Assembly (NCBI GenBank): GCA_036850965.1
Contig: JAZGQO010000009.1
Location: forward strand, 353,610-417,609
DNA from: Patella caerulea
Lineage: Eukaryota
Reading direction: 5' to 3'
Length of the DNA: 64,000 nt
Within the stretch, counting starts at the first letter, position 1; each line of letters starts with the position of its first letter. The notes beneath the pieces are model-generated. The model worked only from the letters and a program-made list of their open reading frames with translations. It was not told the origin of the DNA and searched no databases. Below are positions 57,457 to 64,000 of this stretch, piece after piece. The position numbers were made by a program, and so were the translations under genes.

Positions 57457-57913
57457 TGTAACACTACAGATAACAGACCATCAGCATAGGTTGTAGATCT
57501 TTTATTGAGAACATGGAATAGACATAGATCGGAAGGAGCTCTATTCAATTCTGACTTACTGTCAGTTAATTCTGGCTTTATAAAGCATACAGCCATTAAG
57601 AATAATGATACATGACAGATTAACTTATTTGGAATTGAGAGTATAGTTTCTATAACTGCACTGCATCTTCCCTTTAATGTCGCGAAGTTCTGCCGAGTGT
57701 TAAACACATAGATCATGTAGGTTATAAATAACATATAAATAAATAAGATATTTAATGAGATCGTGCCTTTTGTCAAAACGAGCAGAGGTCATTCGTGTGT
57801 TGCCCGTAAATAACATATTGAACAGATTAGCAGAAGTTGTATATAGCTGAAAACGTCAAATATAATATAATGTCAAATCTAGCAAAGTTCTATGTAAAAA
57901 TAACTTTGTCACA
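57457..57913 (-). repeat. 3' LTR of the env-bearing element (about 457 bp; TGTGACAAAG...GTGTTACA in element orientation)
   Basis: Reverse complement is homologous throughout to the LTRs at 2126-2572 and 5110-5556 (e.g. TGTTCAATATGTTATTTACGG.C.ACACACGAATG.CCTCTGCTCGTTTT.ACAAAAGGCACGATCTCATTAAATAT; CTCAATAAA..TCTA.CAAC.TATGCTGAT..TCTGTTATCTGTA..GTGTTACA). Preceded by polypurine tract GGTGATGAAGGAA (reverse complement of 57915-57927). Confidence 0.75.
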
Positions 57914-57956
57914 TTCCTTCATCACCCATGAGTTATGTACCAAAAGGACATAACAA

Positions 57957-58075
57957 ACACAATTGAAAACGTCCAATATAATATAATGTCAAATCTAGCA
58001 AAGTTCCATATCACTTTGTCACATTCCTTCATCACCCATGAGTTATGTACCAAAAGGACATAACAAACACCATTC
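57957..58075 (-). repeat. tandem duplication of the polypurine-tract/U3-start junction (second polypurine tract plus first approximately 57 bp of LTR)
   Basis: Bases 57840-57955 and about 57957-58075 are direct near-copies; each contains CATGGGTGATGAAGGAA|TGTGACAAAGT. CTTTGTCACA occurs at 57905-57913 and 58018-58026. Confidence 0.6.
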
Positions 58076-58406
58076 TCACAGGTGGGACACTGTTTCCATC
58101 TGTATACATTGATGTTTCACACAATAAAATTACATTACACACGAATTAGGAAGAGCACACGCGATATAACACAGCAAACCTGATATAACAACAGTACGCA
58201 TGAAATAATAAAAGTACATATGATAAACTTAGAACACACGCGATTATATATATATATATATATATTTATATTACAAGTCCGGAACAACCTTGGTCCTAGA
58301 AGTTTTTGTAGGACGATACCATTCTAAGTGTACACTTCCTGTTACCATTAAATTTGGTACTGACATCATAATATTTAATTTTCCACTGGCATCCTTCTTG
58401 ATAAAC

Positions 58407-61146: not shown

Positions 61147-61194
61147 AAATGCTTTATGCTGATTTTCAAGAGCAATTTGATGGAATTCTTCACC

Positions 61195-63996
61195 TCAATA
61201 TTTCCGTCGTGGTTTCAGCAAATTATCAATAGGCAAAACTACATCTCTTGTATATAATAAATAAAATGGTGAAAATTTTGAAGATTCACAAATATTAAAC
61301 CTAATAGCTGCCAATGTTTGGTTTAAATATAAATCCCATGTATTTAAATTATCTTCTAACTTTTTTGAAAGGACGCTAACCATCGTTTGATGGAATCTTT
61401 CAACACGGCTGTTCGATTGGGGCCGGTAATATGATGTTGTTATATGGTGAATATTTAAAGCAGTTAATGTTTGATGCATAGTGCGATTTTCATTTTCGCT
61501 CCCATTATCCGTAACTAATTGTAACGGTGTGCCATATCTAGGAAAGATTTCGTCAATTAATAAATGAGCTACGTTATCAGCACTTTTATCCTTGACCGCA
61601 TATGCCTCGGGCCACCCACTATACCAGTCAACAAATGATATGATGTATTTATTACCCGAGAGTGATAATGGGTATGGTCCAGACAAATCAAGTGAAACTT
61701 TAGCAAAGGGGTATGGTGGGATATCGGTTTCTTGTAATGGAGGTTTAATTTTCTTTGATGAACGCTTTTGACATGTTACGCATCTGGACACATACTGATA
61801 AATGTGTTTATATAAATTAGGCCAATAATACTTTTCTTTGATAAAACTGTAAGTTTTATCTATACCTAAATGAAACATGTCATGATATTCCTTAATTACA
61901 TCAGATCGTAAATGATCTGGTACAAATAACCTCGGAGTCGGTTCATCATTAGGATCAGAAATGTAATGTAAGACATCCTGCATTAATAAGTATTTATTAT
62001 TACTTGCACATGGTTTATTACTTCTTAACTGTGCAATGATATTGACAATATCCTTATCTTTAACCTGTTCTTCAATCATGTTATAACCCTCTAAAGTAGG
62101 TGGTTTAACGGTATTATCGTTATTACCTAAATCGACCGTGCACTTTGCAAATTCCCGTGGTTCAAACTGATTCGAATTTATGGCGTTGATTTCTAGTGTA
62201 TTATCGTTTACTTCTGAATTAAGCAGTTCTTCCTCCTGAAATTGAGTCGGCATTCGACTAAGAAAATCAGCGATAACATTTTGTTTACCCGATAAATATT
62301 CAATCTTACAGTTATAAGCACTTATGGTTAAAGACCACATTTCAAGTTTTTTATTATTCATCGGTGAATCAAGTAAATATTTTAAAGGTTTGTGATCAGT
62401 ACGTATAATAAATTCTGCGTCATGTAAATAGAAATCTAACTTTTGTAATGCATAATGGATAGCATAACATTCTTTTTCAATAGTTGACCAACGACTTTGT
62501 GTATTACTAAGTGTATGAGACAGCATATAAACTGGCAATTCTTCTTCTATGCCTTTAGAATTACGTTTAGTTTGACAAAGATAAGCCCCCACGGAGAAAT
62601 TACTCGCGTCCGTATACAGAATATACGGTTTGTTTGGATTAGGGTACGATAACATTGGTATTTGAACTAATGTTTGTTTTAAGGCATGAAATGAATTTTC
62701 ACATTGAAGAGTCCATTCGAATTTTGCATTCTTGCGGGTTAAAGCAATCAATGGTTCAGCAAGTTTGGAAAAATTAGAAAAATAACGACGATAATAAGAA
62801 CACATGCCAATGATAGATCGAACTTGTTTTACAGTTTGGGGCTGACTTATATTTTTGATCACACTGACTTTCTGGGGGTCGGGTTTAATGCCATTGGGCG
62901 TGATAACAAAACCTAGATAAGTTGTCTCAGTTTGGAGAAAACTACATTTCTTTAATTTCAATTTGAGCTTATGAACACGAATCCTGTCAAAAACTAAATT
63001 AATATGCTTAAAATGATCCTCTAAGGATGAAGAGAATATTAAAATATCATCTAAATATGCAATAGCAAATGTTTGCATATCACGAAGAACAATAGCCATT
63101 AATCCTTGAAAAAGTCCTGGGGCGTTGGCGATCCCAAAAGGCATAGTATTGAACTCGTAAAGCCCGCGATGACATGAAAATGCTGTTTTTTCTCTATCAG
63201 CTTTGTCCATTAACACTTGCCGATAGCCCGATTTCATATCCAATTTTGAAAAATACTGTTTGTCGTGCAATTGAGCTAAAATGTCGTCCACCAGGGGGAG
63301 GGGATATGATGAGAATTTAGTGATTTTATTTAATTTCCGGAAATCGACACAGAACCGTTTCGAACCATCTTTCTTGGAAACGATGACTATAGGAAATGAC
63401 CAAGGGGAACACGAAGGCCGAATAATATTGGCCTTAAGCATATCATCAATTGCTTGATCAACTACAGGTCGCTTATTAAGAGGTGTCCTATACGGCGGAA
63501 GTTTAATTGGGGGGTGTGATCCAGTATTAATCGTCATTTTAACTGTGTCAGTTTGACTAAGATCTAAATCTGTGGCTGCAAATAGGTCATTCTTACTGGA
63601 GATAAGATTATGTAATCGGTCTTTAAATTGTGCGGGTACATCAACATCATTGAGATTAACCGCCGGCGGCGTTTGGGCCGTATTTGTTTGAGAAATTTCA
63701 GTGAAAGCTATTAGTTTGCCTGAGGCAATATTTTCAATCCTACCAACAATACATCCCCTTTTAAGTTTAAACGTACGATTAGTGCTATTTGTTATCATAA
63801 GGGGAAATCTACGTCGCTTAGTCGCATTACTGACCCCATTACTAATTAACAACCCGGGTTGATTACTAATGAAGCCAAAATCCACAGGCGAAATGATAAC
63901 AGAATCGTCATGCATTAAATTAGCAACTGGTTTGGCGTTGACGAAACATAAATGAGACGTTTGAGGTTTAATAATTACCTGGTTAGCTATTCGCAC
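61195..63996 (-). CDS. pol: pol polyprotein (partial; N-terminus beyond window): reverse transcriptase, RNase H, integrase zinc-finger and DDE core
   Basis: 933-aa ORF. RT motifs FSKLDMKSGYRQV and YLDDILIFS (YxDD). RNase H YTDAS. Integrase HHCC-like H..H...CVTCQ zinc finger. DDE core (DLSGPY ... VTDNGSE). Ends ...KPRRKY then TGA at 61195-61197. Confidence 0.9.
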   Translation of the reverse strand: MRIANQVIIKPQTSHLCFVNAKPVANLMHDDSVIISPVDFGFISNQPGLLISNGVSNATKRRRFPLMITNSTNRTFKLKRGCIVGRIENIASGKLIAFTEISQTNTAQTPPAVNLNDVDVPAQFKDRLHNLISSKNDLFAATDLDLSQTDTVKMTINTGSHPPIKLPPYRTPLNKRPVVDQAIDDMLKANIIRPSCSPWSFPIVIVSKKDGSKRFCVDFRKLNKITKFSSYPLPLVDDILAQLHDKQYFSKLDMKSGYRQVLMDKADREKTAFSCHRGLYEFNTMPFGIANAPGLFQGLMAIVLRDMQTFAIAYLDDILIFSSSLEDHFKHINLVFDRIRVHKLKLKLKKCSFLQTETTYLGFVITPNGIKPDPQKVSVIKNISQPQTVKQVRSIIGMCSYYRRYFSNFSKLAEPLIALTRKNAKFEWTLQCENSFHALKQTLVQIPMLSYPNPNKPYILYTDASNFSVGAYLCQTKRNSKGIEEELPVYMLSHTLSNTQSRWSTIEKECYAIHYALQKLDFYLHDAEFIIRTDHKPLKYLLDSPMNNKKLEMWSLTISAYNCKIEYLSGKQNVIADFLSRMPTQFQEEELLNSEVNDNTLEINAINSNQFEPREFAKCTVDLGNNDNTVKPPTLEGYNMIEEQVKDKDIVNIIAQLRSNKPCASNNKYLLMQDVLHYISDPNDEPTPRLFVPDHLRSDVIKEYHDMFHLGIDKTYSFIKEKYYWPNLYKHIYQYVSRCVTCQKRSSKKIKPPLQETDIPPYPFAKVSLDLSGPYPLSLSGNKYIISFVDWYSGWPEAYAVKDKSADNVAHLLIDEIFPRYGTPLQLVTDNGSENENRTMHQTLTALNIHHITTSYYRPQSNSRVERFHQTMVSVLSKKLEDNLNTWDLYLNQTLAAIRFNICESSKFSPFYLLYTRDVVLPIDNLLKPRRKY

Positions 63997-64000
63997 TAAA

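Follow-up and report, generated by a model that had tools for sequence, protein, structure and literature searches.

An intact F-type envelope gene beside a defective pol in a very probable Ty3/gypsy retrotransposon of the limpet Patella caerulea

Does the end of a limpet contig carry a young retroelement that could still make an infectious envelope? The question is raised by positions 57457-64000 of a 64,000-nucleotide stretch of the Patella caerulea genome (GenBank assembly GCA_036850965.1, contig JAZGQO010000009.1, positions 353,610-417,609; hereafter the window), where an earlier inspection of the letters alone (the sequence-only reading) had proposed a Ty3/gypsy pol followed by an intact F-type envelope gene. 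Both halves of that proposal held, pol by the order of its Pfam domains and env by its profile and fold matches. We conclude with high confidence that 57457-64000 is the 3' ~6.5 kb, or two-thirds, of a minus-strand Ty3/gypsy (Metaviridae) long terminal repeat (LTR) retrotransposon with env and, as part of the same joint reading, that it belongs to the env-bearing group named 'ancient errantiviruses' by Chary and Hayashi (bioRxiv 2023; eLife 2026; PMC13524379). Inside the window are pol from just after the protease, env, the polypurine tract (PPT) and the 3' LTR, all on the minus strand, and the only open reading frames (ORFs) longer than 240 amino acids (aa) in the 64 kb are those of pol and env. 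The window ends at 64000, before the protease, the gag gene, the primer-binding site (PBS), the 5' LTR and the target-site duplication are reached, and the element is read here from its 3' part alone.

The envelope protein and its viral relatives

The 647-aa env that the sequence-only reading had described as uninterrupted is so, at 58407-60350 on the minus strand; its start codon is the first ATG, three codons past an in-frame TGA. Its product, ORF3, is a homologue of baculovirus F and errantivirus Env with the full class I layout of leader, small N-terminal subunit, furin site, fusion peptide, long helix, Cys-rich head, transmembrane (TM) anchor and tail. The gene and its parts are as follows.

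58407-60350, minus: env, 647 aa, F-type (class I) fusion glycoprotein, uninterrupted, with its stop codon at 58407-58409
60306-60350, minus: predicted signal peptide, about aa 1-15, MKLSLIFIFLGGNNS, its hydrophobic h-region read from the sequence
59991-60002, minus: predicted furin-type site RPRR, aa 117-120, the sole R-x-[KR]-R in the protein
59946-59990, minus: predicted fusion peptide AILPIVGKALSYLFG, aa 121-135, directly after RPRR
59595-59822, minus: long central helix (heptad-repeat A, HRA), aa 177-252, a helix in the AlphaFold2 model with a predicted local distance difference test (pLDDT) of 83-91
58581-58649, minus: TM anchor, aa 568-590, the only strong hydrophobic 19-mer (Kyte-Doolittle maximum 2.58)
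58410-58580, minus: cytoplasmic tail, 57 aa, after the TM anchor

A search of 5.8 billion proteins returned 73 Env homologues (E down to 1.6e-135). Those with names came from Lottia, Argopecten, Mytilus, Haliotis, Mercenaria and Dreissena, the closest being from Lottia gigantea (52% identity). We took 31 sequences into an alignment, which is colinear from Met1 to the C-terminus and in which W37, R120 (the final Arg of the cleavage site), H161, R181, P315, L316 and six Cys are invariant. All 31 aligned homologues have a short hydrophobic N-terminus comparable to that of the window protein (MKLSLIFIFLGG, with the h-region LSLIFIFLG, read by eye). The cleavage column holds a basic motif ending in Arg in every one of the 31, strictly R-x-[KR]-R in 26, and its last Arg is invariant. 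The family consensus of the fusion peptide is LPFxGxALSFLFG, with P124, G127, L133, F134 and G135 conserved at 90% or above. The protein also has six N-x-S/T sequons and eight Cys, a crude heptad-repeat scan flags aa 174-239, and the AlphaFold2 model places a helix over the TM region (aa 567-603). The layout set out by the sequence-only reading (hydrophobic leader, small subunit, furin site, fusion peptide, heptad region, sequons and TM anchor) is therefore present; the tail, which it had called short, is not especially so at 57 aa.

Profile comparisons tie this family to viral F proteins. PF12259 (Baculo_F) was matched by 24 of the 31 aligned homologues (best 2.7e-27) and PF07253 (Gypsy) by three. 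The Env family profile found the solved baculovirus F deposited as 'fusion protein' in PDB 9w4c/9w4d (E 2.4e-18); 380 residues of that chain, rebuilt from the printed alignment, scored 2.6e-143 against PF12259, which identifies the chain as baculovirus F. Aligning the Env family with the rebuilt fragment by hhalign gave 97.9% probability (E 4.9e-13, 315 columns), with the cleavage site, fusion peptide, LSPS, IPLLD and Cys-rich head in register. In this alignment RPRR and AILPIVGKALSYLFG fall on RNKR and NIGLNFVGSVDKFLFG of baculovirus F, the counterpart of the fusion peptide being GLNFVGSVDKFLFG. The similarity to F/Env families on which the sequence-only reading had counted is thus found at the profile level (24 of 31 homologues, and the hhalign match). 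Searched more widely, the family profile matched 9282 cluster representatives at E <=1e-3 and 1088 at E <=1e-30, and a scan of IMG/VR with the Env alignment gave 12 pattern matches, none of them confirmed.

Fold comparisons point the same way. The AlphaFold2 model of Env has a mean pLDDT of 69, rising to 80-95 in the head and long helix, and consists of one continuous 76-residue helix (aa 177-252) and a beta-rich region (298-485). Among solved structures, Foldseek matched it to post- and pre-fusion F of respiratory syncytial virus (RSV), human metapneumovirus (hMPV) and human parainfluenza virus 3 (hPIV3) at E 4e-12 to 7e-8 and probability 1.0, with RSV F spanning E 4e-12 to 1e-8 and supplying, in its post-fusion form, the best PDB match. 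Among predicted viral structures, the leading matches were baculovirus F/Ld130 proteins (E 5e-23 to 3e-19, probability 1.0), followed by chu-like virus glycoproteins and an abalone herpesvirus protein.

Several results weigh against this assignment. On its own, the window Env had no Pfam match at E up to 1 and did not reach the threshold of PF12259 or PF07253, so that the direct Pfam comparison proposed by the sequence-only reading (Baculo_F PF12259, or errantivirus Env) gave no hit, and its closest relative, the Lottia protein P0006, had no Pfam match at E up to 10. A direct phmmer search of the PDB with Env likewise returned nothing meaningful. Membership of the F family is therefore transitive, by way of profile and fold. 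The TM-scores to F proteins are low (about 0.25-0.46), modest values of the kind to be expected when a monomer model of a metastable, two-conformation trimer is compared. A further point concerns the N-terminal subunit (aa 1-120), which contains no Cys. From its sequence, then, no inter-subunit disulfide would be possible and the two subunits of the window Env cannot be disulfide-linked; such a bond is known in baculovirus and paramyxovirus F. The N-terminal subunit is free of Cys in 16 of the 31 family members, and elsewhere its Cys occupy no conserved column.

pol, the LTR and related elements

The pol gene supplies the class of the element. It is one continuous frame with the parts listed here.

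60433-63999, minus: pol, cut by the window edge just after the protease; one continuous frame with one stop
62902-63378, minus: reverse transcriptase (RT; Pfam RVT_1, E 2.7e-36)
62314-62715, minus: RNase H (Pfam RT_RNaseH, E 2.5e-30)
61756-61923, minus: integrase HHCC domain (Pfam Integrase_H2C2, E 5.3e-21)
61420-61659, minus: integrase core (Pfam rve, E 1.9e-11)
60892-61068, minus: integrase C-terminal domain (Pfam MLVIN_C, weak, E 2.6e-4)
61195-61197, minus: in-frame TGA at pol codon 935, after the integrase core and ahead of the C-terminal domain
63220-63222, minus: CGG (Arg) in place of Trp in the RT motif SGYWQ, giving SGYRQ; Trp in relatives

RVT_1 (aa 207-365), RT_RNaseH (453-561), Integrase_H2C2 (692-747) and rve (780-859) lie in a 933-aa ORF, and MLVIN_C in a 237-aa ORF past the stop. 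The order RT, RNase H, integrase, with integrase downstream of RT, is that of Ty3/gypsy elements, unlike Copia. The region bridging RNase H and integrase bears on the subgroup. An AlphaFold2 model of pol aa 420-760 (pLDDT 77) has, in its own numbering, a canonical RNase H at 39-161, a disordered linker, helices at 221-249 and three strands at 250-253, 256-261 and 268-272, after which come the helices of the integrase HHCC domain. As modelled, this is the topology of the 'mini' domain of the ancient group and not a five-stranded pseudo-RNase H, the comparison being one of secondary-structure topology alone with the definition given in section 7 of PMC13524379. Further upstream, a stretch of ~110 aa between the protease and RT (VRIANQVIIKPQT...GCIVGRIENI) was considered as a dUTPase-like domain and rejected, as it had no Pfam match at E up to 10 and only chance matches to phycoerythrin in the PDB.

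On the other side of env, the non-coding parts complete the 3' end.

57457-58023, minus: 3' LTR, 567 bp, TGTGAC...GTTACA, its start and end taken from alignment with both LTRs of an element at 2126-5556
57577-57582, minus: TATAAA in the LTR, conserved in related LTRs
57501-57506, minus: AATAAA, the poly(A) signal in the LTR, conserved in related LTRs
58024-58037, minus: PPT GGGTGATGAAGGAA, directly upstream of the LTR
57848-58074, minus: tandem duplication of ~110 bp (2.0 copies, 91% matches) across the PPT/LTR junction
58038-58406, minus: non-coding spacer with a (TA)n run, from the env stop to the PPT; identity to the corresponding part of the 2126-5556 element is ~64%
60351-60432, minus: pol-env spacer of 82 nt, T-rich with a T10 run, and with AG dinucleotides just 5' of the env ATG

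The boundary that the sequence-only reading had drawn at 57457 coincides with the ACA end of the LTR in the alignment to the LTRs of the 2126-5556 element. The termini are TG...CA and a polypurine tract precedes the 3' LTR; the 2126-5556 element has GGGTGGGGATGGAA in the matching position, immediately before its own 3' LTR. Because the tandem duplication spans their junction, the PPT and the LTR start are present twice, and the LTR may in truth begin at the second copy, at about 57913. By analogy with Drosophila gypsy, the spacer at 60351-60432 may hold the splice acceptor from which a subgenomic env mRNA would be made.

On other contigs of molluscan type, relatives have gag, pol and env in this order. 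Two metagenomic relatives, obtained through exact protein look-up, give an idea of the complete architecture.

L001, hydrothermal-vent metagenome: gag (Ty3_capsid), pol (protease, RT, RNase H, integrase) and env (Baculo_F)
L003, JGI metagenome: ORF1 (332 aa, without a Pfam hit) in the place of gag, then pol and env (Baculo_F)

L003 has repeated ends, which set its unit at 8863 bp and suggest ~9-9.5 kb for a full element. In the relatives, env genes 36-39% identical to that of the window are paired with pol genes 53-55% identical, on the same contigs and in the same order, and these sequence identities are consistent with co-divergence of env and pol rather than with a recent capture. Among those of the listed pol relatives that bear an organism name, two are Patella caerulea proteins and the others come from metagenome-assembled genome bins of Candidatus Thiodiazotropha, which we take to be clam-host DNA. 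A third locus, L002, consisted of repeated env-gag without pol, looked like an assembly of repeated copies and was left unused.

Age and condition of the window copy

The sequence-only reading had judged the lineage young on the strength of a sibling element at 2126-5556. This is a non-autonomous LTR element on the plus strand, with LTRs of ~447 bp (TGT...ACA) and a CTAA target-site duplication. The claim that its LTRs are 100% identical holds, over 449 nt, and the insertion is genuine and recent. The internal region of ~2.5 kb has no ORF longer than 76 aa, keeps a short piece matching the N-terminal region of pol, and retains at 4745-4846 a decayed env C-terminus that ends in GMVSAETEDENTLHGTDVSTPAPRNKQVSFTLS and a stop. 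As a close copy of the element at 57457-64000, however, the 'sibling' does not stand: the two LTRs are 74-94% identical in patches only (blastn), and identity across the env 3' end, spacer and LTR start is ~64%. Rather, it derives by deletion from a related subfamily, is non-autonomous, and was presumably mobilised in trans and very recently. The sibling thus supports recent activity of the wider group and not the age of the element at 57457-64000. Past its 5' LTR, a motif occurs twice in the sibling's leader (ATCAGATTTGGATGCCGTGA / ATCAGATTTGGCGCCGTGAA), perhaps through duplication of the PBS region.

The sibling also informs one feature of the cytoplasmic tail. Most family members have a conserved YPxL near the C-terminus of the tail, either YxxPhi-like or late-domain-like. 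Its Tyr is absent from the Patella Env tail (…HNPVTLTLS; window 58410-58440) and from the sibling remnant (…NKQVSFTLS). The loss was considered as a private defect of the window copy, a view we rejected since the sibling's env remnant is also without the motif; the loss is therefore lineage-wide.

Youth is better shown by pol paralogues than by the sibling's LTRs. Three P. caerulea proteins are nearly identical to the window pol: KAK6173844.1 (P0084; 99.6%), KAK6180521.1 (P0195; 99.0%) and KAK6180522.1 (P0194; 99.2%). At such identities the host is P. caerulea or a species very near to it. P0084 and P0195/P0194 lie on separate scaffolds, of 65.6 and 48.8 Mb; at least three copies with pol protein identity of at least 99% are present on different scaffolds. 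P0195 extends upstream into the C-terminus of the protease (...NRNFILGRDWL...). Contig look-ups by exact sequence, made with the window Env and with P0084 and P0195, returned no contig. In the public annotation of P. caerulea, all three are modelled as host 'hypothetical proteins'.

The same paralogues reveal the defects of the window copy. The single in-frame stop that the sequence-only reading had seen in pol is the TGA at 61195-61197, and it is private, as P0084, P0194 and P0195 all carry Leu there; across the 790 codons comparable in three loci, it is the sole private change of the window copy. The Trp of SGYWQ is at least 90% conserved in 26 pol relatives and present in paralogue P0195. 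Its change to Arg is a probable second private defect, and the RT of this copy is probably impaired. With a nonsense codon in integrase and the W-to-R change in RT, the window copy is therefore not itself replication-competent. Thus the young lineage that had been claimed is supported, by paralogues 99.0-99.6% identical in pol, whereas this copy is defective: the family is young, and the window insertion is very young yet already broken.

An intact env adds nothing to the case for selection. About 5.5% of the single-base changes possible in env make a stop, and without selection a stop-free env is expected in 59-81% of copies at 0.2-0.5% divergence from a master copy. The intact env at this locus therefore reflects youth and is not evidence of selection on the locus. 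The Env search found no env of other Patella copies and no homologue above 52% identity, and the family Env was not found among annotated P. caerulea proteins. Elements bearing env are likely under-annotated in patellogastropods, because the Env proteins of Patella and Lottia both escape Pfam PF12259.

Against an LTR retrotransposon carrying its own env, three other origins of the 647-aa ORF have to be set. Were it a chance open frame or a fragment of an unrelated captured host gene, the lack of a direct Pfam match for the protein itself would be explained. Such a frame of 647 codons has a probability of ~1e-20 at the window's base composition, the homologues align over the whole length (E to 1e-135) with furin site, fusion peptide and cysteines kept, and viral F proteins are matched by both profile and fold; we consider this origin ruled out by these results, its probability being vanishingly small. 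It is also extremely unlikely that env is a host-domesticated envelope gene, like Drosophila Iris or a syncytin, selected for a host function and lying by chance beside retroelement debris. That env is intact and the adjoining pol broken would fit such a history, and domestication of an F-type env is known in Drosophila (PMC1262188). However, env lies only 82 nt past pol on the same strand and is followed by the PPT and LTR, and pol has one private stop and is 99.0-99.6% identical to its paralogues, which makes the whole unit a recent insertion. A stop-free env is expected in most copies (the 59-81% given above) without selection, and in the sibling a remnant of this env C-terminus, now decayed, lies between that element's own LTRs.

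The remaining alternative would have env captured recently from a mollusc DNA virus, through a malacoherpesvirus 'envelope fusion protein' or a baculovirus-like gene, with little co-evolution with pol. The abalone herpesvirus protein is the fourth viral fold match (E 2.7e-21), baculovirus F is among the closest viral folds, and insect errantiviruses were classically explained by capture from baculoviruses (Malik et al. 2000, cited in PMC13524379). We nevertheless find such a capture very unlikely here. In the relatives, an env at 36-39% identity is accompanied on its contig by a pol at 53-55%, with the gene order unchanged, which indicates that the two genes diverged together; Chary and Hayashi have reported co-divergence of env and pol (PMC13524379); the 9282 profile matches (1088 at E <=1e-30) are far above any sampled viral clade; and sequence identity to viral F is only 13-16%.

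For the Ty3/gypsy family that we take to have inserted here with its own env, one further step can be contemplated. The family may be replication-competent now, with Env giving cell-to-cell or animal-to-animal transmission and derivatives such as 2126-5556 being mobilised in trans. We think this unlikely, while noting what is compatible with it: at least three copies at 99% or more in pol, an env that is intact with every functional motif, and a deletion derivative with 100% identical LTRs and a clean target-site duplication. If true, it would mean an active retrovirus-like agent of a marine gastropod.

Comparison with known systems and proposed life cycle

The sequence-only reading had suggested that, in a host other than an insect, the locus would extend the range of env-carrying gypsy elements. 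The host is indeed not an insect, but the extension is not new, because Chary and Hayashi have already searched metazoan genomes systematically and described intact gag-pol-env Ty3/gypsy elements in most phyla, with an env of F-type or glycoprotein B (gB) type and clades that include Mollusca (PMC13524379). They report conserved furin sites and fusion peptides, RSV-F-like predicted structures, near-identical multiple copies and env-pol co-divergence, and distinguish an ancient group with a 'mini' domain (an N-terminal helix and three short strands) from insect errantiviruses with a five-stranded pseudo-RNase H. The string 'Patell' is absent from the text of PMC13524379, and only the Patella family of this element may be new. 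The locus therefore adds little to a picture in which F-type env Ty3/gypsy elements are documented across Metazoa, molluscs included, and the env family runs into thousands. Its value is as a well-resolved, very young limpet example in a chromosome-level genome, on which the infectivity of non-insect 'errantiviruses' could be tested, and as an annotation note, given that the Patella and Lottia Env escape Pfam Baculo_F.

The limpet element shares with the ancient errantiviruses the order of pol and then env (gag-pol-env in relatives L001 and L003), an F-type Env in which the furin site and fusion peptide are conserved and whose predicted fold resembles RSV F, an RNase H followed by the 'mini' domain, near-identical genome copies, and nearest relatives that are all molluscan. 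Nothing qualitative separates them; the window copy, with its in-frame TGA in pol, lacks the uninterrupted gag, pol and env by which Chary and Hayashi filter for intact elements. With Drosophila gypsy, ZAM and Idefix (Errantivirus) it has in common the LTR-gag-pol-env plan, a baculovirus-F-related Env with furin site and TM anchor (three of the 31 aligned homologues hit PF07253) and a short target duplication (CTAA, seen at the sibling 2126-5556). It differs from them in its gastropod host, in having a 'mini' domain in the pol bridge where the insect elements have a duplicated pseudo-RNase H, and in a window Env that falls below any Pfam threshold.

Among viral proteins, baculovirus F (Ld130/Se8 type; PF12259; PDB 9w4c/9w4d/9w4e) shows profile-level homology over ~315-410 residues, but at ~13-18% identity; the limpet gene lies in a retroelement and not in a large DNA virus, and the solved baculovirus chain has Cys before the cleavage site, whereas the limpet N-terminal (F2-like) subunit has none. 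RSV, hMPV and hPIV3 F share the class I fold, furin-split small and large subunits, an N-terminal fusion peptide and a long HRA helix. Identity to them is 9-12%, none was listed in the PDB profile search, and, unlike pneumoviruses and paramyxoviruses, the limpet element has no separate attachment protein gene in the part within the window. The malacoherpesvirus 'envelope fusion protein' (abalone herpesvirus p119, OsHV-1 ORF68) shares the association with molluscs and a predicted fold that matches the Patella Env (E 2.7e-21, TMq 0.42); it differs in that the match is at fold level only (14% identity) and the protein, of 801 aa, is encoded by a herpesvirus. The matching entry, A0A145VUZ2 of Abalone herpesvirus Taiwan/2005, is deposited as an 801-aa 'uncharacterized protein' and comes fourth among the viral fold matches of the limpet Env. 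The p119 / OsHV-1 ORF68 frame of malacoherpesviruses, which may correspond to it, has been annotated 'envelop fusion protein' (PMC6353905).

From what is known of the family, and with Drosophila gypsy/ZAM and the F proteins of baculoviruses and paramyxoviruses as models, a life cycle can be proposed for an intact member of the family. A full-length RNA from the 5' LTR would serve as both gag-pol mRNA and genome, and Env would be made from a spliced subgenomic RNA, candidate acceptor signals (a T-rich tract and AG) lying at 60351-60432. Env would enter the endoplasmic reticulum, be glycosylated and trimerise. A furin-like convertase would then cut after RPRR, so that the membrane-anchored subunit would now begin with the fusion peptide. 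When triggered, the long helix would extend, the fusion peptide would enter the target membrane, and fold-back would merge the two membranes, so that virus-like particles might pass between cells.

The window is rich in repeats, its long ORFs contain no obvious host coding exons, and a tRNA scan of it found no tRNA genes. A 90-bp piece of the tandemly duplicated U3 module of the LTR (57825-57914) is 94% identical, on the opposite strand, to 14777-14866, which is the edge of a satellite-like array with units of ~207-240 bp at 14.8-17.9 kb. Further tandem arrays occupy 37068-38640 and 24741-24983, with units of ~145/292 bp and ~39-46 bp. At 55752-56591 on the minus strand, pieces of a Tc1/mariner-type transposase appear in overlapping frames (motifs ...DDNARCHRA... 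and ...SPDLSPIEHVWD...); the DNA transposon to which they belong is decayed and frameshifted and lies ~0.9 kb from the end of the LTR.

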